In this document: positions 31,931 through 64,000 of the stretch, one piece after another | Layout: each line of letters starts with the position of its first letter | Position numbering within the stretch: the stretch's first letter is position 1 | Source of the DNA: Planctomycetia bacterium | GTDB lineage: Bacteria > Planctomycetota > Planctomycetia > JALXBF01 > JBGPMX01 | Direction of reading: 5' to 3' | Assembly: GCA_036758585.1 (NCBI GenBank) | Contig: DAIOWH010000001.1 | Coordinates: 98,462-162,461 of the forward strand | DNA length: 64,000 bases | Program-made: the position numbers and the translations under genes | The notes under the pieces: generated by a model | The model's database searches: none | What the model was told of the DNA's origin: nothing | Seen by the model: only the letters and a program-made list of their open reading frames with translations

Positions 31931-32064
31931 ACATTGAAAGGGGTTCGTTTAACCCGCAGCCGCAGGCGAGGCACAACAAACGCCAGCCATGCCTCGCCTG
32001 CGGCTGCGGGTTAAACGACCGAAGCCGATTTCAGACCCCTATTCAATGCGACACAGTACTAAGC
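31931..32064. repeat. Palindromic intergenic repeat element, copy 1 (core stem TTTAACCCGCAGCCGCAGGCGAGG / CCTCGCCTGCGGCTGCGGGTTAAA, 20-nt loop, outer imperfect inverted repeats CATTGAAAGGGG.../...CCCCTATTCAATG)
   Basis: Stem arms at 31948-31971 and 31992-32015. About 85-90% identical over ~130 bp to copy 2 (44393-44554). The core stem is shared with copy 3 (57903-57984). Confidence 0.8.
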
Positions 32065-44392: not shown

Positions 44393-44554
44393 CATTGAAA
44401 GAGGTTCGTTTAACCTCGTTTAACCCGCAGCCGCAGGCGAGGTGAGGCACAACAACGCCAGCCGTACCTCGCCTGCGGCTGCGGGTTAAACGACCGAGGC
44501 GGATTTCAGACCCTATTCAATGCGGCACAGTACTTAGCGGCACAGTACTTAGTC
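44393..44554. repeat. Palindromic intergenic repeat element, copy 2 (same orientation and loop as copy 1; carries small internal tandem duplications)
   Basis: Core stem arms at about 44419-44443 and 44468-44491. Duplicated cgtttaacc and gcggcacagtacttag units. Lies upstream of the VWA gene and downstream of the PP2C gene. Confidence 0.8.
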
Positions 44555-47358: not shown

Positions 47359-47432
47359 GCGCCCGTAGCTCAACCGGATAGAGCAGCGGATTTCTAATCC
47401 GCCGGTTGCAGGTTCGACTCCTGCCGGGCGTA
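47359..47432 (+). tRNA. tRNA-Arg (anticodon TCT)
   Basis: Manual cloverleaf: acceptor GCGCCCG/CGGGCGT (G1-U72 wobble), D-arm GCTC-aaccggata-GAGC, anticodon arm GCGGA-tTtCTAa-TCCGC, variable loop cggtt, T-arm GCAGG-TTCGAct-CCTGC, discriminator A. CCA is not encoded. Confidence 0.85.
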
Positions 47433-47441
47433 CTTGGCTGG

Positions 47442-49748
47442 TTACTTGGAGTCGGTGGCGGCCTCCGAAAGGTCGACGATGCCGAGGTCGATGTACTGCC
47501 CGCCGCCGGTTTGATGGCAGTGGACGGCGAGCGTGTTCTTGCCGGCTTTGAGCGTCTTGCGAGCGGCCTCATCGAGCGGCACTTCGACGTACTGCGTCGT
47601 GTAGCCGGTGACTTGTGCGATCAACTCGCCGTTCAAAAACACTTCGGCGTCTTCGTCGTGATGGATTCGCAATGCGAGTTCGTGGACCGCCATGAATGGC
47701 TTACCATCGCCGGCAATGTCGAACTCGCGACGCAGCCAGATGTCGTTCGTCTTCCAAGGCGTCTTCACGACGCTGCCGGGTGTTGACGGTTCGCCGAAAC
47801 CGCCGGGGCCGGACTTCCACGACGAATCGTCGAAGTCGGACTTCTGCCAGCCGTCGGCTGGTTTGTCGGCCGTGTATCGCCACGTCTGAGCGGTGTGCTC
47901 CGACGTCGGGACAAGCGTCGTAACCTTCGGCGGCGGCAGGTAGAGCTTGCGAGCGGCCTTGGCGATCACATCGGCGTCCATCTTCAACACGGTTCGGTCG
48001 TAGGTCATCAGGCCGTTGACTTCGATTTCGACGTCGGTCGTTTGCGTGTACACGGCCGCGCTGACTCCTTGACCGATCATGGGCCGCAGCGCGCCGAGCA
48101 ACCCGACGTAGGCTCGCTGCAAGTCCTCGCTCTTCGTGAAGGAGCGATAGCCCCAGTTCTTTTCGTCTTGCCAGGTGTGTCCCTTGATCGGCAGGCCGAG
48201 GCCGCCGAACTCACCGAGCACGGCGGCCCGGTCGGCGGTCGGTTTCGGGGCGAACGGGCCGGGGTAGCGATGCACGTCGATGACGTCGCCGACCGGGAAG
48301 TCATTGCCGCCCGACGCGCAGTTCACGAGCCGGGTCGGATCGTGCTCTTTGGTCCACTTCGTGACGGCGACCGTGTTGGCCTGCCCCCAGCCTTCGTTGA
48401 ACGGCACCCACATCACGATGCTGGGATGATTCCGCAGCGAATCGATGATCGCCTGCCACTCGCGGTTGAAGTTGTCGGCCGATTCCGGCAAGCGAGTTGT
48501 CTCGGTGTTGTCGTGCCGGCCGAACGGGTCCCACTTCGCGTGTTTGTCGCCGCTGGGCATGTCCTGCCACACGAGCATCCCCAGCTTGTCGCAGTGATAG
48601 TACCACCGAGCCGGCTCGACCTTCACATGCTTGCGAATCATGTTGAAGCCCAGTTTTCTGGTTTGCTCGATGTCGTAACGGAGCGCTTCGTCGGTCGGCG
48701 CGGTGTAGAGTCCATCCGGCCAAAAGCCTTGATCGAGCGGCCCGTACTGGAAGAGCGGCTTGTTGTTGAGCAGGATGCGAGTCACTCCCGCTTCGTCTTT
48801 GCCGAGTGAGATCTTGCGCAGGCCGAAGTAGCTCCGCACGGAATCGACCACCTTGTCATCGCGGCTGAGTTCCACGCGGAGGTCGTAGAGGAACGGGTCG
48901 GCGGGCGACCATGGCCGCACGATCGGAACCTCGACGGCCAGGTCCTCGACTTCGTCGATCGAACCGTCGGGAATCAGCTCTACCCCCGTGGCCTTGTCAT
49001 TCGCTTCAACCCACACACTTGGCGAAAGTCCTGCCCGTGGTCCGGCGACTTGCACGGCGACGCGCACCAACTTCGCGTCGAGGTCGGGAGTGATCGTGAG
49101 AGACGCGATCCGCGACTCGGGCACCGGCTCGAGCCACGCGGTCTGCCAGATACCGGTGGTGGGCGTGTACCAGATGCCATGCGGGTTCAGGTGTTGTTTA
49201 CCGATCGGTTGGTAGCCGGCGGTGGTCGGGTCCCAGACGCTCACGACTAACTCCTGGTCGCCCGCAGAGGCGAGCGCATCGGTGATGTCGAAAGTGAACG
49301 GGTCGTAGCCGCCGCGGTGCGAGCCCACTTGCTTGCCGTTCACCCAAACAGTTGTGTCCCAATCGACGGCGCCGAAGTGCAACAGCAGTCGTGCGCCTTG
49401 CAGTTGGGGCGGCGCGAACGTTCGGCGATACCACAGCCGGTTGTCCGGCCCAACCTGTTTCATGACGCCCGACAGCGCGGCCTCAACCGGGAACGGCACG
49501 AGTATCTTGCCGTCGAATCGCTCGGGCCGCGGCTGGTCCTTGGGTCGAATGGCGTATTGCCACAGTCCGTTCAGGTTAACCCATCGGTCTCGAACCATCT
49601 GCGGCCGCGGGTATTCGGGATGCACGCGGTCGGGCGATACGTCTTTGGCCCATCGCGTCATGAGTCGCCCGGCGGCCGGCGTCCACTCGTCGGCTGACGC
49701 AGGACTGATTCCGATTGCGGACAGCAAGATCAGGGTTTGCGAGAGCAT
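47442..49748 (-). CDS. Secreted glycoside hydrolase family 2 (beta-galactosidase/beta-mannosidase-like)
   Basis: 768 aa. Signal peptide MLSQTLILLSAIGISPASA. N-terminal sugar-binding jelly-roll (LNGLWQYAIRP). TIM-barrel motifs FNMIRKHVKVEP...LGMLVWQDMP and WVPFNEGWG (GH2 acid/base region). Confidence 0.8.
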   Translation of the reverse strand: MLSQTLILLSAIGISPASADEWTPAAGRLMTRWAKDVSPDRVHPEYPRPQMVRDRWVNLNGLWQYAIRPKDQPRPERFDGKILVPFPVEAALSGVMKQVGPDNRLWYRRTFAPPQLQGARLLLHFGAVDWDTTVWVNGKQVGSHRGGYDPFTFDITDALASAGDQELVVSVWDPTTAGYQPIGKQHLNPHGIWYTPTTGIWQTAWLEPVPESRIASLTITPDLDAKLVRVAVQVAGPRAGLSPSVWVEANDKATGVELIPDGSIDEVEDLAVEVPIVRPWSPADPFLYDLRVELSRDDKVVDSVRSYFGLRKISLGKDEAGVTRILLNNKPLFQYGPLDQGFWPDGLYTAPTDEALRYDIEQTRKLGFNMIRKHVKVEPARWYYHCDKLGMLVWQDMPSGDKHAKWDPFGRHDNTETTRLPESADNFNREWQAIIDSLRNHPSIVMWVPFNEGWGQANTVAVTKWTKEHDPTRLVNCASGGNDFPVGDVIDVHRYPGPFAPKPTADRAAVLGEFGGLGLPIKGHTWQDEKNWGYRSFTKSEDLQRAYVGLLGALRPMIGQGVSAAVYTQTTDVEIEVNGLMTYDRTVLKMDADVIAKAARKLYLPPPKVTTLVPTSEHTAQTWRYTADKPADGWQKSDFDDSSWKSGPGGFGEPSTPGSVVKTPWKTNDIWLRREFDIAGDGKPFMAVHELALRIHHDEDAEVFLNGELIAQVTGYTTQYVEVPLDEAARKTLKAGKNTLAVHCHQTGGGQYIDLGIVDLSEAATDSK

Positions 49749-49790
49749 CTGGGTCCTGCACGATTTCGGTCGGGGCGGGCCGCTGCGAAC

Positions 49791-52700
49791 CTACTGCGTC
49801 TCGACCGTCACGGCCATCACGACGGGGGCCGTGGCGTCGGGGCCCTTCACCAACTCGATCCGTTCGATCGTGTCGGTGCGCTTCGGTTGAACGGCGAGGT
49901 AGCGAATCTGCTGGCCGCGCAGGCGGAACGCGAGCTTCGACTGCGGCACATCGACGACGCGAATGTAGTCGGCGAAGTGGACGCCGTTCTTCAGTTCGTG
50001 GTCTTCGGTCGCGCCGTCGGCGTAGTGCAAGCGCACGATCATCGACACGGTCTCGTCGCGATTGAACGGGAACGCCCAGCCGCCCACGCCCGAGAGCAAG
50101 TGAATCGCTCGCGCCGGCGCGTTGCACGGCAGCGTCACCGACCTGGGCATCTTGGGGGGCAGCGCGCCCTGTGGACCGTTGAGCAGAACGGCGTTCTTCA
50201 CGCGGTCGCCCTGCGGATCGACCAGCACGAACGGCACGCCCTCGACCGTCTTTGGCGACCAGTCGCGGAAGATGAGTCGCTCGACGTCGGAGTCTTCGTT
50301 GATGAACATGCCGCGCGTGCTGACGACCGTGGCGACCTTGGCGAGGTCGAGCGGCAGATACTTGCCGCGGGCGGCGAGAAACTCCAGCAGGTTCACGAGT
50401 TCCTCGCGAGTGATCTGTTTCTCGAACCCCTCGGGCATGAGCGATTTCGGCGATTCGAGCAACTCCTCGACGTCCTCGCGCAGTACGATCTGCTTCTTGC
50501 CCTCGGGGTCGAACAGTTCGAGCGCGGTCTTTGTTTCCGAGGCCAAGAGGCCGGTGAGCACGCGGCCGTCTTTGGTGGCAACCAGGTACGCGCGGTAGTT
50601 GCCCTCGACCGAGCGGCTGGGGTCGAGGATGTTCGTTAGGAGTTCGATCTTCGGGTGTACGGCCATGCCGGTGAGGTCCGGGCCGACTTTCGACCCTTCG
50701 CCCGAATGCGTGTGGCACTTGGCACAATGTTTGGTGAACGCCGCCTTGCCCGCGGCCACGTCGCCTGTTTCCTTCGTGATCGGCTCGAACTCCTCCATCA
50801 CCTTCTGCCGGTCCGGGTTCGGCAGGCGTCCCTTGCGCGCGAGCACCGTCTTCGCCCGCTCCGCGATCGCCTTGTTGGGATGCCCGGCCAGCGTCGTCGC
50901 CTGGTCCGACGCCAGATCGGTCGAATCGACCTTGCCCGCTTCAATCGCATCGAGCAGCGCCTTCGACCACGCCGGCCGCTTCACGAGTGCCGCCAGGGCC
51001 GCCCGTCGCGTCGCGGGAGTCAGCGACGGCCAGCGCTCGAGGATCGCCGCGCCGACTTCGTCCGAGCCGCTTTCGCCGAGCGCTTCGATGATGCCGCCGG
51101 ACAGCGCGGGACTCGCCGCGGGCGTGACGAGATCGAGCAGCGATTTCATCGACTCATCGTCGCTACCGACGGCAACCAGTTGCCGCGCGGCGGCAACACG
51201 CGACTCGTCTGCGAGTTTTGTATCGCCGATCCGCGTCAGCATCGTCTTTCTGATTCCAGCCGCCGACGCCTCGAACTTGCCGCGAATTCCCATCCGACCG
51301 GCAAGCTTCGCGAGCGCGAGTTGTCCCTGAGGTGATAGCTTGCCGACCATCGCGTCTAGCGCGTCATTGGCGTCCTCGTCAAGTTTCGACCTGTGCTCCG
51401 ATGACCAACCGGCAGCGAGTCCAGCGACTGCCGCATCGGCAACGATCGGAACTTCCGAAGCGCTCAGTGAACGAATCACGACGCCGATATCCTCGTCATC
51501 AGGTTTGCGACGTGCGAAGTTTTCGGCAACGGTGCGTACGGCGTCGGTGACTCGTTTCGTTGACGCTACATCCGACTTCAAATTCAGCGCAGCCGCGGAA
51601 AGAAATCCCACGTCACTCTTGGCGCCCGCAACAATGGCGGCCAATGGGATCCACGGATCAGAAGCACTCTGTGGTTCCGAAAGGAACCTCGCGGCGTTCT
51701 CACCTGAAACCGTGGACGGTTCTGAATTCGCGCTGAACAGGAGCATTGCCAATCGCTCCTTCGGATGACCAGCCACGTAACGGTCCCGCTGCGGCGGTAA
51801 AAGTATGCCGTTGAGTCGCGGTGTCTCGGCGAGGCCCTCCTCAGTCTGATGGGCGTGAAGTGCCGAGAGTTCAATCGCTGTCGGAAGCCCATCGGCCTTT
51901 CGACCCACCTTGTCTCTCACGTAGCTCATCAGAGTCTCGTGGAGCTGCGGCGCCAGTTCTTTCCGCTTGCTTTCGACGAGCAACCGTTGCGCAGTCAGGC
52001 GCACCCACATGTTCTTGTCCGAAAAGGCGGCAAGAAGTTGCTCCGGCGTCGCGCGGTCGAGTCGAATGGGCGGCTGGGGTCGAGTCTTCGAGCCCCCAGC
52101 CTTTTCGTTAGCGTAGTGCAGGCGGCCCGCCTGCAATGTCGTCAAAGGAAACCGCAGGCGATCCGCCTGCACTACGACTTCCTTGGGAGTCGCTTTGTCG
52201 CCCGCAGCCTGGGTGCTCGAAGAATCGACCCCAGCCACCCCAACGCTGGACGATTTCTCCGCGTCGTGCACGACGCGATAAATCCGCCCGTGCGTTTGGT
52301 CGCGGAGTGGAGTTTCGTAGGCGTTGCCGCGGCCGGTCTTGAAGCCGGCGGGCGTGGGGTTGTGCTGAATGATGTAGTTGTACCAGTCGAGGATCCAGAC
52401 GGCGCCGTCCGGACCGACCTTGGCATCGACCGGGCCGAACCACGGGTCGGTCGAGGCCACGAGGTTCCAGCCGTCGCGGGCGATGAAGCCGGAACCGTTC
52501 GGCACGAGCCAGTCGATGTGCACCAGCCGCGCGGTCGGCTCGCAGACGAACACGGCGCGGTTCCAATATTCCGGCGGGAAGCTGCGGGCTGTGTACACCT
52601 CGCAGCCGGCCGCGGCCGTGAACCCGCCGTGCCAGTCCATCTGACGGAAGTCGCCGACGATCGGGTGTACCTTATTGTGGTCCTGGATTCCGGCGCTGCC

Positions 52701-54500
52701 GACGCCGTGCCAGCCGCGGACCATCTCGAAGTAGCGGTTCGGGATCGCCATGTGGACGAGATGCTGGTTGTTCGCCGTCGAGCAGAACACGTCGCCGGTC
52801 TCGCTGAAGCCGAGGCCCCAGGTGTTGTTCGAGGTGGGGGTGATGACCTCGAAGGCGGTGACGCGGGGGAGAGATTGCTGATTGCTAATTGCTGATTGCT
52901 GATTGCCAGATTTCGTCACTTGCGTCTCTTCCGTCCTTCTTGTCCCGGAAGAAACCTCGGTCGACCCACCGTTTAGTTTGAAGCGAAAGATGCACTGGCG
53001 GAACGAAATCTCTTCCTCCCTCTCCCCGTCTGCGGGGAGAGGGTTGGGGTGAGGGGTAGTCGGCACGTTGTTCGAGTTCACTAGTTTTTTTGCTTGCTCC
53101 CCAGACCCCTCACCCCGGCCCTCTCCCCGCAGACGGGGAGAGGGAGCAGTCGTGACGGCGGAGGCCGGCCGCGTCACTTTCACTTTGCCGCCGGAGTAGC
53201 CGCACACGCCCCAAATCCAGTTGTCGAGGCCGTAGCGCAGGTTCGAGGTGACGGCGTGCGTGTCGCCGCGGCCGAAGCCGGTGAGGATGATCTCGCGCAC
53301 GTCGGCCCGGTCGTCGCCGTCGGTGTCCTTGAGGAACAGGAGGTGCGGGGCGCACGCGACCACGACTCCGCCGTGCGTGTTCACGATCGCGGTCGGGATG
53401 TTCAGCTTGTCGGCGAACACGGTGAACTTGTCGGCGCGGCCGTCTTGGTTGGTGTCTTCGCAAATCTTGATCTGGTCGTTGCCGTTTTGGTGCGGGTCGT
53501 CGAGCAGCTTGTTCGGGTAGTCGACGCTCTCGATGATCCAGAGACGTCCGCGTTCGTCCCATGAACCGGCCATCGGCTTCTTGATGTCCGGTTCGGCGGC
53601 GAACAGTTCCGCGCGGAACCCTTCCGGCATGTGCATATGTTTGATGGATAGTTCGGGCGGCAGCGGCTTGGCGATCTTGTTCAGGTTCTCGCCCTGTGTG
53701 CCCCACTTCTGGCCGGGGGTGTAGTGAGGAATCGGCGCGCCGGCGTCGACGTATTCGAGTGGCGGCAGGTCGTCGGTCAGGCGGCCGGTCGCCCAGCGGA
53801 TGCCATTCTCGACGAGCTTGTGAAACTGCGGTTGCCCGAAAGTTTTTTCATCGTGGCCGAGCGCAGTGTAGAAGACGCGGCCTTTGCCTTGCTGACGTAC
53901 CCAGCAACTCGGCTCATAGCCGCCCGCCTCGTCGCGTACCATCACCGCCTGAATGTCGGCGGCGACATCGGAGTGCGTGTAATCCTCGTCTGTGACCTCG
54001 AATCCGCTGAGTCCGCGCACGGCGGGATGCTGTGCGTCGATGATCCGAGTTTGGAACTTGCGGAACCCGTGCTTCGAGAACCGGCCGCCGACAAGAGACA
54101 CATACCTTGTGCTCGATCCGAAACATGCGGACGCACAGTGCAACGGGACGAATCCCTTGCCGCCCTCGACGAACTCAACCAGCGCCGCTTCCTGCTCGGC
54201 CGACATTGTGGTGTGATTGGCGTACACGACCAGTCCGTCGTATTCGCCGAGCGTCTTTGCGTTCAAGTCGGCGACGCGATCGGTGTAAGTCAGCTTGATG
54301 CCGCGCTCGGCCAGCACAGGCTCGATCTGCTTGAACCGGGCGGCCGGCCGGTGGTGGCCGTTGTCGCCAAGGAATAGGATGCGGATCGGCGTCTGCTCGC
54401 CGGGGTCCTCGGCGCCCGACCAGGCCAACGTCGCACCGCCCAAGAGCAATAGTGTCGTGACAGTAACGGCACGGCTGAGATTACGCATGGATCTCTCCAC
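49791..54500 (-). CDS. PVC-type fusion protein: ThuA-like (class-I glutamine-amidotransferase-like) domain + putative membrane-bound dehydrogenase beta-propeller + HEAT repeats + CxxCH cytochrome c domain (1569 aa)
   Basis: Signal peptide MRNLSRAVTVTTLLLLGGATLAWS. ILFLGDNGHH...ALGHDEKTF (ThuA-like). Propeller segments (WIIESVDYPN.., WILDWYNYIIQHNPTP..). Long HEAT/ARM-like helical region. CAKCHTHSG heme-binding motif at about 50711-50725 followed by LMPEGFE. This architecture is characteristic of Planctomycetes/Verrucomicrobia. Confidence 0.85.
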   Translation of the reverse strand: MERSMRNLSRAVTVTTLLLLGGATLAWSGAEDPGEQTPIRILFLGDNGHHRPAARFKQIEPVLAERGIKLTYTDRVADLNAKTLGEYDGLVVYANHTTMSAEQEAALVEFVEGGKGFVPLHCASACFGSSTRYVSLVGGRFSKHGFRKFQTRIIDAQHPAVRGLSGFEVTDEDYTHSDVAADIQAVMVRDEAGGYEPSCWVRQQGKGRVFYTALGHDEKTFGQPQFHKLVENGIRWATGRLTDDLPPLEYVDAGAPIPHYTPGQKWGTQGENLNKIAKPLPPELSIKHMHMPEGFRAELFAAEPDIKKPMAGSWDERGRLWIIESVDYPNKLLDDPHQNGNDQIKICEDTNQDGRADKFTVFADKLNIPTAIVNTHGGVVVACAPHLLFLKDTDGDDRADVREIILTGFGRGDTHAVTSNLRYGLDNWIWGVCGYSGGKVKVTRPASAVTTAPSPRLRGEGRGEGSGEQAKKLVNSNNVPTTPHPNPLPADGEREEEISFRQCIFRFKLNGGSTEVSSGTRRTEETQVTKSGNQQSAISNQQSLPRVTAFEVITPTSNNTWGLGFSETGDVFCSTANNQHLVHMAIPNRYFEMVRGWHGVGSAGIQDHNKVHPIVGDFRQMDWHGGFTAAAGCEVYTARSFPPEYWNRAVFVCEPTARLVHIDWLVPNGSGFIARDGWNLVASTDPWFGPVDAKVGPDGAVWILDWYNYIIQHNPTPAGFKTGRGNAYETPLRDQTHGRIYRVVHDAEKSSSVGVAGVDSSSTQAAGDKATPKEVVVQADRLRFPLTTLQAGRLHYANEKAGGSKTRPQPPIRLDRATPEQLLAAFSDKNMWVRLTAQRLLVESKRKELAPQLHETLMSYVRDKVGRKADGLPTAIELSALHAHQTEEGLAETPRLNGILLPPQRDRYVAGHPKERLAMLLFSANSEPSTVSGENAARFLSEPQSASDPWIPLAAIVAGAKSDVGFLSAAALNLKSDVASTKRVTDAVRTVAENFARRKPDDEDIGVVIRSLSASEVPIVADAAVAGLAAGWSSEHRSKLDEDANDALDAMVGKLSPQGQLALAKLAGRMGIRGKFEASAAGIRKTMLTRIGDTKLADESRVAAARQLVAVGSDDESMKSLLDLVTPAASPALSGGIIEALGESGSDEVGAAILERWPSLTPATRRAALAALVKRPAWSKALLDAIEAGKVDSTDLASDQATTLAGHPNKAIAERAKTVLARKGRLPNPDRQKVMEEFEPITKETGDVAAGKAAFTKHCAKCHTHSGEGSKVGPDLTGMAVHPKIELLTNILDPSRSVEGNYRAYLVATKDGRVLTGLLASETKTALELFDPEGKKQIVLREDVEELLESPKSLMPEGFEKQITREELVNLLEFLAARGKYLPLDLAKVATVVSTRGMFINEDSDVERLIFRDWSPKTVEGVPFVLVDPQGDRVKNAVLLNGPQGALPPKMPRSVTLPCNAPARAIHLLSGVGGWAFPFNRDETVSMIVRLHYADGATEDHELKNGVHFADYIRVVDVPQSKLAFRLRGQQIRYLAVQPKRTDTIERIELVKGPDATAPVVMAVTVETQ
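52874..52908. repeat. Tandem heptamer repeat (ATTGCTG-like x5) inside the PVC dehydrogenase coding sequence
   Basis: attgctg attgcta attgctg attgctg attgcca read directly. It encodes the low-complexity NQQSAISNQQS stretch on the minus strand. Local GC is far below the gene average. Confidence 0.75.
53019..53144. mobile_element. MITE-like insertion inside a coding sequence: near-perfect 39-bp inverted repeat (CCTCTCCCCGTCTGCGGGGAGAGGGTTGGGGTGAGGGGT ... ACCCCTCACCCCGGCCCTCTCCCCGCAGACGGGGAGAGG) flanking a 47-bp AT-rich core, kept in frame
   Basis: The arms at 53019-53058 and 53106-53144 match at 37 of 39 positions as reverse complements, and each arm also contains its own short hairpin. The core (agtcggcacgttgttcgagttcactagtttttttgcttgctcc) is AT-rich relative to the gene. 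Together with the heptamer repeat it adds about 95 low-complexity residues (..RGEGRGEGSGEQ..PHPNPLPADGEREEE..) between propeller segments. Confidence 0.55.
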
Positions 54501-54597
54501 GAACAGTAAAAAACCAAGCCGCCGTCACGCACCGCCGGCACCACGGCGTCCGGGGGCGCGTGAGGGCCACGATTCCCGACTACTTGCGCGAGACAGT

Positions 54598-55725
54598 TTA
54601 AGGTGTAACAGGCGTCGGATGGAATACCCGAACCGTGCAGTCTGTGGGCGCCGCTCGCACCGCCGCCTCGTCGTCCCGCGGAAAGTAGTCGTCGACGACG
54701 TCGAGAAACTGCTGGCGCGTCGAGACCTTGGTGACCCGTGCACGGAAGGTCGTCGCGCCGCGCTTGCCGCTGGCATAGTGGCAGGCGTACTTTTTCATCA
54801 ACAGCGTACCGCTGCGTTCGTCGAATCTTTGGCAAATCAGATCGTAGTGGTGCAGCATCAGTTGCCGCTGCTGGTCGAACGTCGGATCGGGCGGCACCGG
54901 CTCACCGCGCAGGGCGGCCTCGATCTGGCGAAACAGCCAGGGCCGGCCGATCGCCGCGCGCGCGATCATCACGCCGTCGACGCCGTAGCGGCGAAACGCG
55001 GCGATCACCTTGGCGGGCGAATCGAGATCGCCGTTGCCGATGAGCGGCATCCGTTTGAGGTGCGGCTTGATCGCGGCGATGCGGTCCCAGTCGGCATGCC
55101 CGCCGAAATAGTCCTGGGCCGTGCGGCCGTGTACGGTGAGTGCGGCTGCGCCGGCCGACTCCACCACCTGCGCCACGTCGATCGCATTCATCTGGTCGCG
55201 GGTGCAACCGAGCCTGATCTTGGCGGTGACCGGCGTCGGCCGGCACGCGGCGACGACACGCTCGATGATCCGCCCCATCCGGTCGGGAAACCTCAGCAGG
55301 TACGATCCGCTGTGCGCCCGTTCGGTCAACTTCTTCACCGGGCAACCAAAGTTGATGTCGACGACGCTCACGCGATACTCATGGGCCAGGCGCTCGCCCA
55401 CCTTGGCCAGCGTGTCGGGGTCGTTGTCCCACATCTGCACGGCGATCGGCCGCGGCTCGTCTTTCACGCCCCACAATCGCTCGGGGTGTTCGCAATCGTG
55501 TTCGTCCAGCCAGACGAACGCGCGTGCGTTCACCATCTCGGTCGCCTGCAGCCCCACGCCGCCGAACTGCCGCACGATCTGCCGAAACGCATAGCTGGTG
55601 TAGCCCGCCATCGGCGCGGCGAGCACCGGCGGGTCGATGCGCAGCGGGCCGATGAACAACGTCGCCAAGGCCAGCGGCGCGATCGGCGAGTTAGGTGGCG
55701 GCGGCGTGGTCAACTGGTCGTGCAT
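54598..55725 (-). CDS. tRNA-dihydrouridine synthase (Dus family)
   Basis: LAAPMAGYTSYAFRQI, VDINFGCPVKK, LTVHGRT, LIGNGDL motifs of the Dus TIM barrel. The probable start is ATG at 55725 (MHDQLTTPPPP...), giving 376 aa. The 477-aa track ORF is an upstream in-frame extension. Confidence 0.8.
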   Translation of the reverse strand: MHDQLTTPPPPNSPIAPLALATLFIGPLRIDPPVLAAPMAGYTSYAFRQIVRQFGGVGLQATEMVNARAFVWLDEHDCEHPERLWGVKDEPRPIAVQMWDNDPDTLAKVGERLAHEYRVSVVDINFGCPVKKLTERAHSGSYLLRFPDRMGRIIERVVAACRPTPVTAKIRLGCTRDQMNAIDVAQVVESAGAAALTVHGRTAQDYFGGHADWDRIAAIKPHLKRMPLIGNGDLDSPAKVIAAFRRYGVDGVMIARAAIGRPWLFRQIEAALRGEPVPPDPTFDQQRQLMLHHYDLICQRFDERSGTLLMKKYACHYASGKRGATTFRARVTKVSTRQQFLDVVDDYFPRDDEAAVRAAPTDCTVRVFHPTPVTP

Positions 55726-55824
55726 GCACGCATCTTGCGAGAAGTCGGCGCGTGCGCCAAGTGCGGGAACTTGTTTTGGCGGCCACTTGCGGCAACAATT
55801 CGTGCAACTCTTAGAGAGGAACCA

Positions 55825-56088
55825 ATGGCCAGTGAACTGCTCTGGAAACGTGCGGTCCGCCGGGCGTTCGACTCGTTGCGGGGAGAACGGTTCGACGGCG
55901 ACTTCCGGCTTGCCTGCGAACTTTCGGCGATGTCCATTGACATGCTGCGTCGGTATCTGGCGGGATCGGATAATCCATCCGACGAGGAACTGGACCGACG
56001 GGTCTCCCGATTTCGCATTGAGATGGAGCAAGTCGAGCGACGCATGGCCACGTCATGGCGAACGGTGCGAGTCACGGTGAAGGAATGA
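55825..56088 (+). CDS. Small hypothetical protein (87 aa), first gene of a translationally coupled pair
   Basis: ATG at 55825 is preceded by AGAGAGGA (SD-like) 6 nt upstream. Its stop overlaps the next gene's start in an ATGA arrangement. No recognisable family. Confidence 0.4.
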   Translation: MASELLWKRAVRRAFDSLRGERFDGDFRLACELSAMSIDMLRRYLAGSDNPSDEELDRRVSRFRIEMEQVERRMATSWRTVRVTVKE

Positions 56089-56645
56089 CCAGCGCAACTG
56101 TTCGGGCAACCCTGGAAGCCGCCATTGGCTTGCTGGAGCGACTGAACCTTCCTTACGCGCTGATGGGAGCGATGTCGCTCGGGTTCTATGGCCGATTGCG
56201 AGCGACCGACGACGTCGACCTATTGGTTGCAGGGGACAGCCAGACCCTCGATCGCCTTCGTGATGAAGCGCAACGTGAAGGTTTTTCGATCGACGAACAG
56301 TGGTCGCTGTACAATCCGGGGTTGCGCGACACGCACGTCCGATTGGTCCGCTCGGGCGTCCCTGTCGATATGATGCTGCCGCGCGACGATCAGGACCGGT
56401 CCGCCGCCGACCGCCGTCGTCAGCACGTGATAGAGACCGGTACCATCTGGGTCGTCGCGCCCGAGGACTTGATCCTTCAGAAACTCAAGGCAGGTCGCCC
56501 CCGCGATTTCGACGACGCAATCCCGATCTTCGCGCGGAACCGAGCGCAGCTCGACCACGACTATCTCAATGAATGGGCGCGGCGGCTTGGTGTGCGCGAG
56601 GAATTGGATTACCTCTGGAGTCAAAGCGGCCGAGCCGAACCATGA
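56085..56645 (+). CDS. Minimal nucleotidyltransferase-fold (Pol-beta superfamily) protein, about 186 aa
   Basis: GAMSLGFYGRLRATDDVDLLV matches the hG[GS]x9-13Dh[DE] NTase signature. A second acidic cluster (VVAPEDLILQKLKAGRPRDFDD) follows. The start is taken as the ATG in the ATGA overlap at 56085; the track's 56055 ATG is an alternative. Confidence 0.5.
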   Translation: MTSATVRATLEAAIGLLERLNLPYALMGAMSLGFYGRLRATDDVDLLVAGDSQTLDRLRDEAQREGFSIDEQWSLYNPGLRDTHVRLVRSGVPVDMMLPRDDQDRSAADRRRQHVIETGTIWVVAPEDLILQKLKAGRPRDFDDAIPIFARNRAQLDHDYLNEWARRLGVREELDYLWSQSGRAEP

Positions 56646-56661
56646 GATTGCCGGCAGGGAA

Positions 56662-57777
56662 TCACTGCAGAGTGAACTCCGGCAGGCGCACGATTTCGCC
56701 GCCCTTCAGAGCCGACTGGTGGGCGCAGATGCCCACGCACGTCCAGTTTGCCGACTGCACGGCGTTCGGCCATGGGTCGCGGTTGCCGACCAGGGCGCTG
56801 ACGAACTCGTTCACCAAGTGCGGGTGCGATCCGCCGTGACCGCCGCCCTGAATGAACGACAGGTGGTCGGCGTCTTGAATGGTCCGCGTGAACTGCCGAA
56901 TCGGCTCGGGCAGCAGGTGTGCGTAGTCGGGCGACTGGACCTTCGACGGAATCTCCGGCTCCGGCTTCTTGGCTGTGTGAATGATGTGCGGCTCATGCTC
57001 GACCAGCGTCCACTCGAAACTCTTCTTGGTGCCGTACACGTCGAAGCTCTCGCGGTACTGACGGGCCGTATCGTACAGGAACCGCCAGATGTGACAGGCG
57101 ATGTCCGAGTCCTTGATCTTGATGTGGCAACTCTCGACAGCGAACTTGTTGCCCGACTTTTTCTGGATGTCCTCGCGCACCGTGCCCGACCCGAAACAAC
57201 TGACGTATTCGGCCCGGCCGTTCACCAGGCCCAGGCACGGACTGACGACATGCGTCGCGTAGTGCATCGGGATCATCCGCTCCCAGTACGCCGGCCAGCC
57301 GTCCATGTCTTGCGGGTGCGATGCGGCCATGTGCTGAATCTTGCCCAGCTCGCCCTTGGTGTACATTTCTTTGACGAACAGGAACTCGCGGCTGTACACG
57401 ACGGTCTCGGCCATCATGTACTTGAGGCCGGTCTTTTTGACGAGGTCGCAAATCTCTTTGCACTCTTCGACGGTCGTGGCCATCGGCACGGTACACATCA
57501 CGTGCTTGCCGGCTTTGAGCGCCGCGGCGGACATCGGTGCGTGGTCGGGGATCGGCGAGTTGATGTGTACGAAGTCGACGCTGGGATCCTTCAGCACGTC
57601 GTCGTAGTTGGTGTAGCGTTTTTCAATGCCGAAGTGATCGCCGACCTTGTTCATCTTGTCGGCCGATCGCTGGCAGATCGCGTACATGTTCGCGTTGGGG
57701 TGTTTCTGATAGATGGGGATAAACTCGGCCCCGAACCCAAGCCCGACGATTGCGACGTTGACTTTCTTGTTGCTCAT
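56662..57777 (-). CDS. Gfo/Idh/MocA-family NAD(P)-dependent oxidoreductase
   Basis: N-terminal Rossmann VNVAIVGLGFGAEFIP and family-typical EKP-like region. 371 aa. Spot counts of 60-nt windows give about 52-56% GC versus about 67% in the giant genes. Confidence 0.85.
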   Translation of the reverse strand: MSNKKVNVAIVGLGFGAEFIPIYQKHPNANMYAICQRSADKMNKVGDHFGIEKRYTNYDDVLKDPSVDFVHINSPIPDHAPMSAAALKAGKHVMCTVPMATTVEECKEICDLVKKTGLKYMMAETVVYSREFLFVKEMYTKGELGKIQHMAASHPQDMDGWPAYWERMIPMHYATHVVSPCLGLVNGRAEYVSCFGSGTVREDIQKKSGNKFAVESCHIKIKDSDIACHIWRFLYDTARQYRESFDVYGTKKSFEWTLVEHEPHIIHTAKKPEPEIPSKVQSPDYAHLLPEPIRQFTRTIQDADHLSFIQGGGHGGSHPHLVNEFVSALVGNRDPWPNAVQSANWTCVGICAHQSALKGGEIVRLPEFTLQ

Positions 57778-57891
57778 GTTTGCGAATCTCCAAGTGATCT
57801 GGTGAGCCAGCCCATCGGCGGCCCGACAGTATACAAGCGAGCGACCGGCTCAGCGAGTGTGCAGGGCGCAAAGGGTGTATTTCCGTAGCTG

Positions 57892-57998
57892 CGCTTCGCT
57901 CGTTTAACCCGCAGCCGCAGGCGAGGTCGTGTTTGATCCGTGCAATTCGCACGATGCCGACCTCGCCTGCGGCTGTGGGTTAAGCGAGCGCCGAATGC
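57892..57998. repeat. Palindromic intergenic repeat element, copy 3 (same 24-bp core stem, different loop and extended outer stem GCTTCGCTCG/CGAGCGCCGAA)
   Basis: Core arms 57903-57926 and 57961-57984 (one mismatch: ggctgTgggttaa). The loop contains its own small hairpin cgtgc-aattc-gcacg. Located in the divergent intergenic region between the oxidoreductase and the fragmented surface-protein gene. Confidence 0.75.
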
Positions 57999-58016
57999 AA
58001 TTACGGGTATACACCC

Positions 58017-60287
58017 GTGCAAACGACAAACGACGATGGACAGCACCAGCGGCTGGGTGATGGTTCGAGCGGGTGCGGCAACAACGGCGCGCCGACGACT
58101 ACTACAGATTCCGCCTTCGATGAGACCGGCGCGTATTGGTTCATGGTCGACCCTGGCACGTACGTGGTCCGTGAGATCGTTCCCAACGGCTTGGTCCAGA
58201 CTTTCCCATCGGCTGACGACTACGGCGGTTCCGTTTCGGTCGACGAATACGGTGGCGGGGTGGGGCATGTGGTGGACGTGCCCGACGGCACGGCAGTGTA
58301 CGACGTGGACTTCGGCAACGCGCCTGCCGCAGAGTTCACCGACCTTTATCCTGACGTCTACCACGTCGTCGAAGTCCTGCCCGATGGATTCGCCCAGACG
58401 GCCCCGGACGAGTACGGCGGATTCGGAGACTACGGCGGCGGAGTCACTAACTTCTGCGATGAGTACGGCGGCTTTGGTGAGTACGGCGGCTTCGGTGATA
58501 TCGGCGACTACGGCGGCGCCATCGGTTGCCTGGGTTACAGCGTCCATCTGGCGGCGGGCGACGTCGTCGAAGACCTCGACTTTGGCAACATCGAGTTGCT
58601 GGGCGAAATTCACGGCGTCAAGTTCAACGACCTCAACGGAAACGGGATTCAGGACAAGGTGCTCGTACGCGGCGATGAACCGACCGTGGTGTTCGTCGTG
58701 GACGTGTCCGGCAGCACCGATAGCGCCTTCGTCGGCACACCCGTCGGCGACGTTAACGGCAATGGGACGCCTGATACCATTCTGGACGCGGAACTTGCCG
58801 GCTTCATCGCGCTCAATCAGGAACTCGTCGATCGCGGATTCGGTACAACCAGCCGCGTCGCGATTACGGTGTTTGGAGATTACGGCGGTGCCGTCGACAT
58901 GGACCCGACCACGCCGGAATTGGACCTGTCGCTGCCGGCCGGCCAGGACGCTGATTCGGATGGCGTGCTGGATGTCGAAGAGGTTCTGCGTTCGATCGTT
59001 TCCGGCGCGTTCGGCGTTGGCGCCTTGACCAACTATGAAGCAGCCCTTGGTGTGACATTGGATACATTGACCACGCTGTACCTGTCCAGGAACCGGGCAT
59101 TCCTGGCGTTCAGGTCTACCTCGACCTGAACAACAACGGCTCGCACGACGCAGGCGACGAGTTGAACCCGGGCGAGCCGTTGACCGTGACGATGTTCGAT
59201 GATCCGCTCACAGCCGCGGATGAGACCGGTATGTACTGGTTCGATGGGTTGCCGGCGGGCAACTATGTGGTTCGCGAGCTGACGCCCGACGGCTTTGTGC
59301 AGACCTTCCCGACTACCACCGACGACTTCGCCCATGCCGTTGAATTGGCTGCGGGCAGCACGGTGGAAGGCCAGGATTTCGGCAACCAGGCGATCGGCGG
59401 ATCGATACATGGCACCAAGTTCGAAGACATCGACGCCGATGGCGTGCGCGACCCTGGCCCGGCTGTCGTGATCGCCGTGGACCGCTCCGGTCGTCGCCTG
59501 TCTACCGCCGAGCGGTTCACTGTTCCCGTTCGGTGTCACGACGGTGAACTGCACGGCTACAGACTCTCATGGCAATAGTGCGGCTGGTTCATTCCATGTC
59601 ACTGTGCGGGATATCCAACGGCCGACGGTCACGGGACTGGAGTTTATCCCGAGCGCCAAGGGAGGCATTCAGGCAATCGTGGTCGCCTTCAGTGAAGCGG
59701 TAGACGCCGCCACAGCGGGAGTTCCGGGCCACTATCAGGTTGTGGGCGACGTGGCCAAGAACAAGCAGGCCGCTGTCGACAATGTGGCTCTTGATGATGA
59801 TACGCATGTTCGGGTGACGTTGGCCAAGACGGGAATCGGCGCCAACAAGCGGGCCTCGCTCACCGTCTCAGATTCAATCACCGATCGTGCGGGCAATAAG
59901 CTCGACGGCGACGCAGACGGCGTACAGGATGCCGTGGACAGCTTCTTCGACGTGTTTGCACGCGGCAAGGAGATATCGTTCGTCGACTCGACCGCAGACA
60001 AGTCGTCGGTGTCATTGAAGTCAGCGCCGCCGGCTGGCGCCATTGAGGCATTCTTCGAGCAGAACGGCGACCTTCGGCTGATTCGTCTAGTCGGGACGAC
60101 CGAGGCCACGCAACTGCTCGGCAAGACCGCGGGCACGACGCCTCGCCCACCGATCACGGGCACTCCATTCACGGACCTCCTGCCCGACACCTTTGTGCCA
60201 CCCGGCACGTTGGCGTCTGCCGTGGATGAAGTGTTGGCGACCAAGCCAAAGAAGCCCGGTCGAAACGGACGCCTGGGAGGTAGGTAA
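58017..60287 (+). pseudogene. Fragmented cell-surface protein gene (prealbumin-like SdrD-B/Cna-B-type repeats, VWA-like MIDAS segment, HYR domain) split into three ORFs by at least two frameshifts and lacking a signal peptide
   Basis: ORFs 58017-59129, 59162-59578 and 59544-60287. Repeated YWFMVDPGTYVVREIVPNGLVQTFP / YWFDGLPAGNYVVRELTPDGFVQTFP and HGVKFNDLNGNGIQD / HGTKFEDIDADGVRD. VVFVVDVSGSTDS (VWA MIDAS-like). The SdrD-B start GIPGVQVYLDLNNNG is readable only in the frame of ORF2 upstream of ORF1's stop (shift about 59050-59100). The HYR segment [42 protein letters not shown] begins upstream of ORF3's GTG in its frame (shift about 59470). Confidence 0.55.
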
Positions 60288-60386
60288 CCCGCTAGCTGCT
60301 TGACACTCGGTAACCCGCTAAACGACCAACCACGGATTCGCCCGTGGTTGGTTCGTTTTTTGGCAGTGTCGCACGCTTTGGCCGCA

Positions 60387-61594
60387 TCACCCGGCGCCCA
60401 AGACCGCGAGACAGTGCTGCACGATGGCAGACAATGGGCTGGCCAGACCGCGACCGTGAAGCGTCTTGGCCCAGTAGACCGCCTGTTTCGCAAAGCGGGG
60501 ATCAGCGACGACCTGGTGCACCGCTTGGCTGATGGCTTGCACGGTGACGCGGCCGGACAGCGAGATCCCGACCCCCATGCGCTGCAACGCCTGCGCATTC
60601 AGTTGCTGTTCCAAATAGCGCGGCAACAGCAACTGCGGCCGACCGGTTGTCAGTGCGTCCTGGCAAGTCAGAAGACCGCCGTGGTGCAAGACGGCCGAGA
60701 CTCGCGGCAGCACCTCGTGCAGCGGGGCCGGCGTGGCATGTACCTCAAGGCCCATCGCCCGCAGATTCTTTTGAAGTTGCTGTGATGCGCCGCGGACATA
60801 CACCGATCCGGCAACTTGCAACTTGGGCAAGAGAGAGAGTATCTGCTCGGCTGGCCGATGCTCGCCGGCCAAGTATGCGAACAACGACGGGCGAGTCGGT
60901 AGCGTCTCAGCGGCTGGCATCCAAGTGATTGGTCCGACCGCCGAATCGCGCCGGACGGCGTTGTATGGATCGAGCTCTGGAAAAGTACAAGCAAAGCCTC
61001 GGGCGTCAGCCAAAAGACCCGGCAAGGTGTTTGGCGCCGGCCGGTTGCGCCGCCGCTGGACCTCGCGCACCACAGATAGAATCTGTTCCTGCGGCGACTG
61101 GGCGCGAACGTTACGAAGCAACGCCGGGAACTCCGGCCCGTCAGTGGCCGGTACGGTGAAACCGGACCCAATCATTACCACGGGTACCGTTCGATAGGCG
61201 GCAAGACACAGCGTTGGGCTGTGGTCGCACACGATCAATGCCGGGCGAACCACATCGATCACGCCCTGCCAGCCGCACACGATAGGGGTCAGGTCGTCGG
61301 GGTCGGTGAATCCGCGAATCGCGAGATGTCAGCGTAGCTCGCCGCGCGAAACTGCCGGTCGGCCGGCGTCGGTCGCGCGGGCCACGTTGGAGATTGCAAG
61401 ACGGGAAACTGGGTGTCGCCGAGCAGTGGCGCCGCTTCAAGCAGGTTCTTCACGGCAAATACCGGCCGGTGACCGTGCGCCGCAAGCTCATTCGCGACGC
61501 GCAGCAGCGGCTGCACGTGACCGAGGCCCGCCCCTAGTTCCCACCCCATCAGCACGTTTGCCACGCGATCTTCCCCTTGCCACTCGGTTTGCAC
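60387..61594 (-). pseudogene. GT-B fold glycosyltransferase (GT1/MGT, UDP-glycosyltransferase-like) interrupted by a frameshift
   Basis: The N-terminal ORF (61289-61594) has VLMGWELGAGLGHVQPLLRVANELAAHGHRPVF (Gly-rich acceptor-domain start). The C-terminal ORF (60387-61280) has the HHGGLLT donor-binding motif. The C-terminal frame reads FTDPDDLTPIVCGW upstream of its Met, contiguous with the N-terminal part. Junction at about 61310-61321, not at a homopolymer. Confidence 0.6.
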
Positions 61595-61693
61595 GCGGCC
61601 ATATTTGCCGTGTAGCGAGTCGAATTGTTGTGGCCAAACCTCGCCGGGTCAACAGTGGTTGATGACATACCGGTCGGCTCGGGGCGTACGGCA

Positions 61694-62584
61694 ATGCGAG
61701 ACCTCAAGAACGTAGAGGCACTCTCCTTGGAAGAGCGGTGCCGTCGCGAGATACCACCTCTTGGCGCCACCGACGCCGAGGTGCATGCCCTAAATAGTGT
61801 GTCGCTGCGAGAGTCGGAAGCCCTTCGCGAGAACCTTCATTCCCTCAAGACCTATTGCACCTTCATTGGCTACCCGCGCAGCGGCCACAGCATCCTCGGC
61901 AGCCTTCTCGACGCCCATCCGAACGCCGTCCTTGCTCACGAACTCGACACCGTACGCTTTGTTGAAGCCGGGTTTTCCGCCATGCAGTTGTACTACCTGC
62001 TTCTGGAAAACTCGCGGCAGTTCACCAACGCCGGACGCACGTGGGGCAAGTATTGCTATGCGGTTCGAGATCAGTGGCAAGGCCGCTACAGCGAACTAAA
62101 CGTCATCGGCGACAACAAAGGTGGTCGCACCACCGTTCGGATCGGCCGCAACTGGGAACTCATCGAGCGGCTTTGCCGAACGATTCCACTTCAGCACCGT
62201 TTCATATGATACACGTGATTCGCAACCCCTTTCGACAACATTGCAACGATTGCCTTGCGGCAGACGCACGACCTTCGCAGGGCCATCGAGCAGTACTTTT
62301 TCATGTGCGACACGAACCGAAAGATCCGTGAACAACTGGGCGATCAAGTGTTCGACCTGTACCACGAGGACTTCGTTGGAGACCCAAGATACTGGCTGGG
62401 CAGGTTGTGCGATTTCGTCGGCGTTTCGGCGACGCTACCGTATCTCGACGCCTGCGCCGACATCGTCTACCGATTGCCACATCGCAGCCGGCTGGAGGTA
62501 CAGTGGCCGCCAGGCGCGCTCGATCTGGTCGCGGCGGAGAAAGACAAGTACGCTTTTCTACGACGATACAGGCCGGACGATTGA
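61694..62584 (+). pseudogene. Sulfotransferase (Sulfotransfer_3-like, 5'-PSB motif YPRSGHS) carrying two closely spaced compensating frameshifts
   Basis: ORFs 61625-62209 and 62255-62584 are in the same frame but separated by two stops. The intervening 62213-62245 reads HMIHVIRNPF (the sulfotransferase RNP.D 3'-PB region) only in another frame. The shifts coincide with T3 and C4 homopolymers. The probable start is ATG 61694 (MRDLKN...). Confidence 0.5.
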
Positions 62585-62585
62585 A

Positions 62586-63197
62586 CTATCGCAGCAACGG
62601 AGAATTGAAGCTGTCCACTTTGGGGAATAGAATGTCAGGCGGTTCGCGGCCAAGAAATGGGCATAGGACCTCCCAGCCCTCGCCGGCACAGATGTTCATG
62701 ACGAGCAGATCGCCCGGGCGGTCTTGAAAGTAACGTCGCACGTTCTCGATATGTGTGTCGTAAACATACGAGAATCGCTCGCGCTGGAACGCATGACACC
62801 CATACACGCAGCAGTCGATGAACTCACCGAACTTTCGCCAGAAGGGCGCCTGTGGAGGTTCGGCGCCACGAAAGTCGAACTGAGTCCAGTGCTTTTCAGC
62901 CGACCGAAGCCACGATTCTTTCTCGCGCACCGTCAGAATGAACTTGCTGCCGGGATAGATCGCGTCGAACTGAGGGTAGTACGGCACGACAGGAGTGTCC
63001 GTCAACGCATCATAATGCCGTAGTATCGTCAGGCTGAACTGTCCGCTTATCAGTTCGGAATACGTCGTCGGGTCTGCCGGAAACCACTTGGTGCGAATCC
63101 CCAAGAGATTCAAGGCGGCCGCCAGAGTTCGCGTCGCGGTCCGACTTAGACCGATCCCAAATATCTTGGCCTTGTGCATGAGTACTGGCGACCCCAC
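62586..63197 (-). CDS. Sulfotransferase-family protein (Sulfotransfer_4-like)
   Basis: 203 aa. N-terminal KIFGIGLSRTATRTLAAALNLLGI matches the kVIgaG.pRTGT.SLkaAL P-loop-like PAPS-binding start of that family. Lower GC than the core genes. Confidence 0.5.
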   Translation of the reverse strand: MGSPVLMHKAKIFGIGLSRTATRTLAAALNLLGIRTKWFPADPTTYSELISGQFSLTILRHYDALTDTPVVPYYPQFDAIYPGSKFILTVREKESWLRSAEKHWTQFDFRGAEPPQAPFWRKFGEFIDCCVYGCHAFQRERFSYVYDTHIENVRRYFQDRPGDLLVMNICAGEGWEVLCPFLGREPPDILFPKVDSFNSPLLR

Positions 63198-63242
63198 CGA
63201 AAAACCGTGTTTGGTGGGATAGGCCCACCGCCGCGCGAAGAG

Positions 63243-64000
63243 CTAGACCACTTCCGGCACCACGTACGGCTTGCGATACTCGCGGGTTAGTAGCGCGTCG
63301 GCGTCCTTGTCGCCGACGAACTTCTCGGACTTCGGGTCGAAGTGCAGTTTGCGGCCGAGGCGGTACGAGACGTTGGCGAGGTGGCAGAGCGCCGACGACA
63401 GATGGCCCTCCTCCACCGGCGCGTTCAGCGTGGCTGCGTCGCGCGACTTCACGGCCTCGACGAAGTTCAAGAAGTGATCCATGCCGCGAGCTTCCTTGGT
63501 CGGACCGCTCGGGCCGGGCTTGCCGGCCTGGCCCATGAAGGTCTGCCACTTGCCCCGGTTCACGACCATGTAGCCCTCTGAGCCGTAGAAGATGTTGCCA
63601 ACTAAAACCTCGCGTTCGTCGTTCGTGGGCAGGCCGCGAACCTCGAATTGCAACACGCCCTCGTCGTATTCAAAGATCGCGTGCTGTGTGTTGGGCGTTT
63701 CGCCGTCGTCGACGTAGCCAAACCGGCCGCCGTCGCTGAACACGGCCTTGGGCAGACCGACGCCCAGCCCCCAGCGCGCGATGTCCATCTCGTGGACGCC
63801 CTGGTTGCCGATGTCGCCGTTGCCGAAATCCCACTGCCAGTGCCAGTCGTAATGGAACCGCTTGCGGCGGATCGGCTTCATCGGCGCCGGACCGCACCAC
63901 AGGTCGTAGTCGACGCCCGCCGGCACAGGGGTCGGCTCGCTGACCTTGCCGATCGACGGGCGCCACTTGAAGCAGTGCCCTTTGGCCATGTACACCTTGC
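63243..64000 (-). CDS. Gfo/Idh/MocA-family oxidoreductase, C-terminal domain (gene continues past the window end)
   Basis: HYDWHWQWDFGNGDIGNQGVHEMDIARW and following alpha/beta region typical of the family's C-terminal domain. The frame is open to the last base of the window, so the N-terminal Rossmann domain is outside it. Confidence 0.6.
   Translation of the reverse strand, partial: KVYMAKGHCFKWRPSIGKVSEPTPVPAGVDYDLWCGPAPMKPIRRKRFHYDWHWQWDFGNGDIGNQGVHEMDIARWGLGVGLPKAVFSDGGRFGYVDDGETPNTQHAIFEYDEGVLQFEVRGLPTNDEREVLVGNIFYGSEGYMVVNRGKWQTFMGQAGKPGPSGPTKEARGMDHFLNFVEAVKSRDAATLNAPVEEGHLSSALCHLANVSYRLGRKLHFDPKSEKFVGDKDADALLTREYRKPYVVPEVV

Follow-up and report, generated by a model that had tools for sequence, protein, structure and literature searches.

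We analysed a 64,000-nucleotide (nt) stretch of DNA from an uncultured Planctomycetia bacterium (contig DAIOWH010000001.1, positions 98,462 to 162,461; hereafter the window), and in particular its segment 56662-63197, which holds an oxidoreductase gene of the Gfo/Idh/MocA type (Gfo1), a surface-protein gene, a glycosyltransferase (GT) gene and two sulfotransferase genes (ST2 and ST1). Our data lead us to conclude, with a probability of roughly 0.8, that three neighbouring resident genes in 58017-62584 were inactivated recently, and that the stretch is not a demonstrable foreign island. We propose that the surface-protein gene, which codes for at least 1,483 amino acids (aa) in a sister strain, was cut to a 2.3-kb remnant in three frames: its 5' end would have been lost at a palindromic repeat, a second deletion or rearrangement would have left a junction inside a von Willebrand factor A (VWA) domain, and a 1,697-nt deletion would have occurred between short repeats. 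The GT gene is frameshifted by a 1-nt deletion and ST2 is stopped by a pair of insertions of 5 and 1 nt, with ST1 still intact. GT, ST2 and ST1 were presumably inherited by the clade as a block, in which the GT is predicted to add a sugar from a nucleoside diphosphate (NDP) sugar to an acceptor, and the two enzymes dependent on 3'-phosphoadenosine 5'-phosphosulfate (PAPS) to sulfate the product; this glycosyl/sulfo pathway would then be switched off in the window strain.

Gene content was established from Pfam together with orthologue comparison; of the five genes in the segment, Gfo1 and ST1 are intact. The orthologue of the surface protein was reached via the 90% cluster of ST2, which gave a 6.9-kb contig (L097, from JGI 3300037422) that carries an uninterrupted surface-protein open reading frame (ORF) of at least 1,483 codons with SdrD_B and HYR domains, an intact GT gene and an intact ST2 allele (P0345), in the order and orientation found in the window. 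A reconstructed ST2 sequence also found an intact 294-aa allele at 96% identity (P0001) on another contig, L083, where it is followed by the start of ST1, again ordered as in the window. L097 is 97.3% identical to the window over 59078-59490 and 96.2% over 59476-62679, some 3.6 kb in all. The sister comparison thus spans surface protein, GT and ST2 on L097, and ST2 and ST1 on L083, with the junctions to Gfo1 and to a second oxidoreductase gene, Gfo2, outside these contigs. Set against these near-identical intact orthologues, the reading frames of the GT, ST2 and the surface protein are all broken in the window, which classes the three as pseudogenes. In all, at least five independent lesions fall within 4.6 kb in these adjacent genes, and the 96-97% identical sister strain has none of them.

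The most extensive damage is in the surface-protein remnant (58017-60287, plus strand; SdrD_B and Big_5 domains by Pfam, bounds from homologue and orthologue comparison). Piece a (58017-59077, frame 1), recognized by tblastn with the homologues P0226, P0231, P0238 and P0276, is made up of an SdrD-B-like unit, a run of eight [DE]YGG motifs and a VWA domain of which the N-terminal half remains; neither a start region nor a signal peptide was found in it. Upstream, the frame is closed by an in-frame TAA stop at 57981-57983, which lies within the right arm of copy 3 of a palindromic repeat (57892-57992) that abuts the truncated 5' end of the remnant. At junction 1 (~59049-59077) the frame shifts and, as judged from the homologues, some 86-93 C-terminal VWA residues are gone. 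Piece b (59078-59490, frame 3), which aligns with positions 1560-1972 of L097, retains an SdrD-B-like unit together with the start of a second VWA domain. Junction 2 (59476-59490), placed by the L097 alignment, is the site of the 1,697-nt deletion (L097 ~1973-3669), whose length is not a multiple of three and which has taken away a VWA domain, an SdrD-B unit and several HYR domains; it sits between the imperfect short repeats GTGGACCG and GTCGACCCG. Piece c (59491-60287, frame 1; ~97% identity to L097) contains the end of the last HYR domain, the Big_5 domain and the C-terminus. A further 1-nt deletion relative to L097 lies in the intergenic region at 60314.

Piece a has no DNA match to L097 1-1559. 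Two metagenome scans for a sister copy of 58017-59048 first gave no hits and then only relatives at 32-43% identity; a protein search for a close intact homologue of the remnant gave only partial matches at 32-52% identity. The possibility that the remnant is a paralogue of the giant proteins in the window, or of the giant protein on contig L086, was rejected, as the similarity is at the level of motifs alone. The [DE]YGG motifs (DDYGG, DEYGG, GDYGG, GEYGG etc.) lie in 58200-58900, where a short tandem DNA repeat at 58407-58517 accounts for several of them; piece a has eight within 344 residues, while the other giant proteins compared, ~17,000 residues in all, have none.

The lesions in the two enzyme genes are smaller. 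The GT pseudogene (60387-61549, minus strand; GT1 family, EryCIII-like/UDPGT, by Pfam and orthologues) is split between frames -1 and -3 by the loss of just one nucleotide at 61325, where the coding strand reads CATCTC in place of CATCCTC; residues 1-75 and 76-384 of the orthologue align without loss in these two frames and join at 61325. In the ST2 pseudogene (61694-62584, plus strand; PF13469, Sulfotransfer_3), comparison with the intact alleles P0001 and P0345 reveals ATATGA in place of a G at 62204-62209 (+5 nt), followed by an extra T at ~62230 (+1 nt), a net gain of 6 nt, with in-frame TGA stops at 62207-62209 and 62216-62218. The replacement makes a perfect 8-nt palindrome, TCATATGA, at 62202-62209, and the compensating T is 21 nt downstream; a single complex mutation of the template-switch type, and not two events, may have left this insertion pair. 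Phase variation through repeat slippage was considered and rejected, as the lesions fall outside simple-sequence tracts. ST1 (62586-63179, minus strand; PF17784, Sulfotransfer_4; 197 aa) is intact by Pfam and orthologue alignment: in an alignment of four orthologues, the window copy among them, it keeps all 130 invariant columns.

Frameshifts in a metagenome-derived assembly such as this one could in principle be sequencing or assembly artefacts that hide intact genes, and one more distant relative (L088) indeed has a GT gene that seems split only because Ns fill a scaffold gap within it. For the window, however, we consider this explanation extremely unlikely. Over all lesions, the window is matched at 100% identity by three other assemblies, each from a different assembler: ENA ERZ27245623 (k141_51735, covering 47391-64000), JGI 3300009594 (57111-63560) and Logan SRR5747427 (contigs covering 60593-63294 and 54717-57908, one of which ends inside palindromic copy 3). 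The lesions lie outside long homopolymers, and they include one complex replacement of 1 nt by 6 and one 1.7-kb deletion with a clean microhomology junction; moreover, more than 30 kb of giant ORFs in the window are uninterrupted. The ENA contig also parts from the window sequence within a tRNA gene that lies 9 kb off, and this structural difference indicates a separate strain variant with the same lesions. A sequence-only reading of this DNA had listed oxidoreductases, a surface protein, a GT and two sulfotransferases in the segment together with copy 3 of a palindromic element, had taken the surface protein, the GT and one sulfotransferase to be disrupted, and had argued from the intact giant genes that the frameshifts were unlikely to reflect poor sequence. 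Pfam supports the gene content, the orthologues confirm the three disruptions, and copy 3 is present in the segment. Its description of the genes as undergoing decay is well supported, with at least five lesions that the sister strain lacks and that three other assemblies reproduce.

To date the losses, we compared the window copies with the intact alleles by the Nei-Gojobori method. Synonymous divergence (dS) between window and intact copies is ~0.08-0.16, and the ratio of nonsynonymous to synonymous divergence (dN/dS) is low throughout: relative to L097, it is 0.07 for the GT, 0.085 and 0.17 for surface-protein pieces b and c, and 0.12 for ST2; relative to L083, it is 0.14 for ST2 and 0.12 for ST1. 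The two intact ST2 alleles (L083 vs L097) give 0.15. Values of 0.07-0.17 mean that nearly all of the divergence arose under purifying selection, and that the inactivations are thus very recent. So many lesions in so short a time could suggest adaptive loss, in which selection removed an exposed surface protein and its modifiers, for example in escape from a phage or predator: at least five lesions have accumulated in 4.6 kb with almost no neutral substitutions since, and all of them are in adjacent genes, with Gfo1, ST1 and Gfo2 intact. While this is a possibility, we regard it as doubtful. There is no direct evidence of selection, and a single knock-out followed by neutral hits or one error-prone repair episode would look alike. 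We see the case as a well-documented but ordinary recent pseudogenisation.

The sequence-only reading had further proposed that the whole of 56662-63197 is a horizontally acquired, lower-GC glycan-sulfation and surface-decoration island that is now decaying, and had estimated 52-57% GC for Gfo1 and both sulfotransferases as opposed to about 67% in the giant genes. The compositional signal is real, but it is small and uneven. The segment has 60.8% GC compared to 63.8% in the rest of the window, and a sliding-window analysis does confirm it as the lowest 6.5-kb stretch, yet it falls short of the mean for stretches of this length by only ~2.3 standard deviations (SD); the dip amounts to 3 points and not 10-15, a contrast several-fold smaller than claimed. 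Local minima of ~55% GC are found at 61.95-62.4 kb and 62.55-62.85 kb. Among the genes, Gfo1 has 60.2%, ST2 ~58% and ST1 56% GC, and the two giant genes have 63.7% and 62.7%.

The codon positions help to interpret these values. For Gfo1, GC content at the first, second and third positions (GC1, GC2 and GC3) is 0.565, 0.387 and 0.857, where the local norm for GC3 is 0.78-0.80; no other genes of the region reach the GC3 of Gfo1 and Gfo2 (0.86-0.88), so the low total GC of these two is due to amino-acid composition, acting through codon positions 1 and 2. GC3 is 0.68-0.73 in the GT, ST2, ST1 and surface-protein piece c. In a resampling of synonymous codons, the pooled GT, ST2 and ST1 genes have a GC3 of 0.71 compared to an expected 0.784 (z = 3.9), although single genes are each within ~2 SD of expectation and the deviation of Gfo1 has the opposite sign. 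In three distant relatives, ST1 and ST2 likewise have a total GC below that of their flanks, which stems from codon positions 1 and 2, while their GC3 is ordinary.

An island origin of the whole segment thus has some points in its favour, namely the low overall GC, the GC3 deficit of the three pooled genes, values of about 0.70 in piece c and in a nucleotidyltransferase gene pair to the left, and flanks of the three-gene cassette that differ in every distant relative. Against it stand the modest size of the dip and the high GC3 of the two oxidoreductase genes, as well as the relatives' sulfotransferase genes, whose low GC is not a matter of third positions. No integrase, transposase or recombinase was found in the segment by Pfam and gene calls of the region, nor were bounding direct repeats found, and it contains no tRNA gene, the only one in the window being at 47359-47433. 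Variable flanks are also seen around a housekeeping gene: the dus product has its best matches, at up to 74% aa identity, in metagenome-assembled genomes (MAGs) of Pirellulaceae/Pirellulales among the GTDB species representatives, and none of 80 dus loci in GTDB relatives has any neighbour gene in common with the window, which suggests that variable flanks reflect low synteny in this group and not mobility. For the same reason, a test for an empty site via dus synteny was uninformative. The dus matches also place the source as an uncultured member of the Pirellulales that lacks a close representative genome. Finally, the genes are not absent from close relatives, as L097 holds the surface protein, GT and ST2, and L083 holds ST2 and ST1, in the same order. 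Conserved synteny with intact genes in related genomes is what the sequence-only reading itself had named as speaking against an island, and this is what the sister strains show; we consider acquisition of the whole segment unlikely.

What a tRNA-integrated island looks like can be seen 9 kb to the left of the segment in the strain variant represented by the ENA contig. There, tRNA-Arg(TCT) at 47359-47433 is a strain-variable junction: it is intact in the window, whereas the ENA contig keeps just the 3' 43 nt, and continues (L094 12300-22307) with genes for a sigma-70-like protein, an HsdM fragment, SLFN/AlbA_2 and EcoEI_R_C proteins, an HsdR-like helicase, and Rad52/22 and DUF932 proteins. 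This junction resembles the attR end of a mobile or defence island integrated at a tRNA, an island that the window, with its tRNA-Arg intact, lacks. In contrast, the segment has no such marks and is present in sister strains.

Instead of the 6.5-kb segment, the conserved unit is a 2.8-kb triad, GT(-)/ST2(+)/ST1(-), that is, three transcription units in alternating orientation. The triad is intact and arranged in the same way in at least three more distant lineages (L084/L085, L086/L087 and L088), with identities of 57-79% for the GT, 56-65% for ST2 and 76-79% for ST1. Its neighbours there are unrelated, with a Ser/Thr kinase-WD40 gene in L084, the gene for a 2,141-aa PATR/cadherin/PKD protein in L086, and radical-SAM and aminotransferase genes in L088. 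The conserved unit does not include Gfo1, Gfo2 or the surface protein; the distant relatives share the triad alone, and Gfo1 was not linked to it in any relative examined. That the triad is kept across lineages with scrambled flanks suggests that its genes work together, and we infer that the broken genes may have decayed jointly for such a reason. Occurrence in distant phyla was considered and rejected, as GT homologues in a Rhodospirillales MAG and in Gemmata (47-48%) have no sulfotransferase neighbours. A second, independent GT pseudogene in L088 was rejected as well, because the split is a run of Ns with an inverted duplication (L088 5660-5760; NCBI MAG contig CAYYNZ010000073.1); the 229-aa and 142-aa GT "genes" annotated there are a scaffolding artefact.

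Several points weigh against our view of a recent inactivation of resident genes. The GC3 deficit of the triad leaves room for an older transfer. The lesions are documented at the level of assemblies, and the three that match the window could derive from one sample or from related ones. In addition, 58017-59077 could stem from a neighbouring gene that was fused in by the deletion, and a giant surface protein stands beside the GT only in L086/L087, so the link between surface protein and triad is not conserved.

The palindromic repeat that borders the remnant is present in the window in three near-identical copies (31940-32025, 44415-44501 and 57892-57992) with the core TTAACCCGCAGCCGCAGGCGAGG; hairpin and repeat analysis finds six arms in three hairpins, where none would be expected by chance. 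The predicted fold has -83 kcal/mol (z = -12.6). The element is multi-copy and hairpin-forming, and all copies are intergenic, as in repetitive extragenic palindromes (REP) or miniature inverted-repeat transposable elements (MITE). No Rfam family matched, and a known RNA family was rejected on these grounds; the element was also absent from all relatives' loci fetched. Separately, two long hairpin repeats (53016-53146 and 52068-52240) lie in frame inside the gene for a 1,569-aa ThuA/DUF7133/cytochrome c protein, with arms of 42 nt at 95% and 35 nt at 89% complementarity. The first repeat reads GEGRGEG...PHPNPLPADGEREE in translation, and both resemble palindromic elements that a coding region tolerates.

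As for the surroundings, the window as a whole has ~63.5% GC and codes for giant repeat proteins, the ThuA/DUF7133/cytochrome c fusion, many Gfo/Idh/MocA proteins and sulfotransferases. Gfo1 (56662-57777, minus strand) is an intact gene of 371 aa with the Pfam N- and C-terminal domains end to end. Gfo2 (63243-64000, minus strand, from gene calls) is intact but cut by the window end, and has 439 aa on the identical contig. A terminator-like hairpin of 12 pairs followed by a T-run (60324-60353, plus strand) is located between the convergent surface-protein and GT genes. To the left of the segment, and outside the decayed module, are an 87-aa ORF and a gene for a 186-aa DUF6036/DUF2204-type nucleotidyltransferase (55825-56645, plus strand; gene calls on the identical contig and Pfam), which overlap by 4 nt and have a GC3 of 0.69-0.70. 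Their layout resembles that of a toxin-antitoxin pair, and the nucleotidyltransferase is also AbiEii-like. PADLOC and NCBIfam gave no match for the pair, and it is not beside dus in relatives; assignment as a defence system was dropped in view of the PADLOC result.

We believe that the locus is of use chiefly because it shows very recent gene loss in an uncultured planctomycete in a clean and datable form, with intact sister alleles as references. It also holds lessons for annotation: GC contrasts estimated by hand can come out several-fold too large, and low total GC may, as for Gfo1, stem from amino-acid composition and not from foreign origin. Planctomycetota are better known for sulfatases, and the uncharacterised cassette of one GT and two sulfotransferases in this Pirellulales clade is a candidate pathway to a sulfated glycoside or glycoconjugate. 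Judging from the protein families, the triad most likely produces a sulfated glycoside or glycolipid, though modification of a protein or glycan by the triad is also possible; the proposed glycan sulfation and surface decoration should be taken as a functional guess.

Comparison with known systems places these proteins as follows. The remnant resembles the SdrD-B/VWA/HYR proteins of Planctomycetota and Cyanobacteria in having an IxGxKF/WxDxNGNG linker and a VWA domain followed by SdrD-B, and its sister-strain orthologue also has HYR and Big_5 domains. It differs from them in being broken into three frames with more than 1.7 kb gone, in sharing only 32-52% identity over parts with external homologues, and in its [DE]YGG run. 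The GT matches PF06722 with 54.9 bits (cut-off 31.7) and, on the C-terminal fragment, PF00201 with 24.2 bits (19.5), and its orthologues carry PF06722. At ~385 aa and of GT-B type, it is similar to GT1 enzymes acting on small molecules (YjiC, OleD/OleI, CalG1-3, GtfA/B/D), and its C-terminal NDP-sugar-binding region matches YjiC, OleD and CalG3 chains with E values of 1e-8 to 1e-10. Unlike these enzymes, it is a pseudogene in the window, has no polyketide or macrolide gene context, and is similar only over ~100 C-terminal residues. The orthologue P0121 scores 59.5 bits with the NCBIfam model TIGR01426 (MGT; cut-off 260) and ~59 bits with that for activator-dependent GTs (cut-off 440), both far too low for either subfamily.

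ST1 matches PF17784 over its full length (124.9 bits vs a cut-off of 22.8; profile positions 1-210 of 215), and in the PDB it matches 9kf1 (E = 7e-12), SgdX2 (8y9p, E = 4e-11) and the schistosome oxamniquine-activating sulfotransferase. SgdX2 is described, by way of a reference cited in PMC11677658, as the activating sulfotransferase of a secondary metabolite in sungeidine biosynthesis. In contrast to SgdX2, the ~200-aa ST1 has no biosynthetic core genes nearby and is always paired with ST2 and the GT in the clade.

The intact ST2 alleles carry PF13469, while the C-terminal fragment in the window alone reaches 23.6 bits, below the cut-off of 27; no NCBIfam model matched ST2. The loop for the 5'-phosphosulfate of PAPS, GYPRSGHS, is invariant in the family alignment. 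With the family profile, the activating sulfotransferases of OLS and CurM come first (4gox, E = 3.5e-11; 4gbm, 7e-9) and the protein-tyrosine sulfotransferases TPST1/2 second (E ~5e-7). The similarity is remote, as a search with the single sequence finds only 4gox (E = 1e-4), and ST2 is a free-standing enzyme of 294 aa, whereas the OLS and CurM sulfotransferases are domains of polyketide synthases. The presence of acidic-Tyr sites beside a distant TPST relative does make protein-tyrosine sulfation a possibility, in that the triad could be a dedicated modifier of the giant surface protein, with ST2 sulfating the eight [DE]YGG tyrosines and all being lost together as a unit. We rate this as very unlikely, because the association of cassette and surface protein is not conserved across lineages. 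If true, it would extend tyrosine sulfation of bacterial surface proteins beyond RaxST/RaxX, to our knowledge the single bacterial case of such sulfation.

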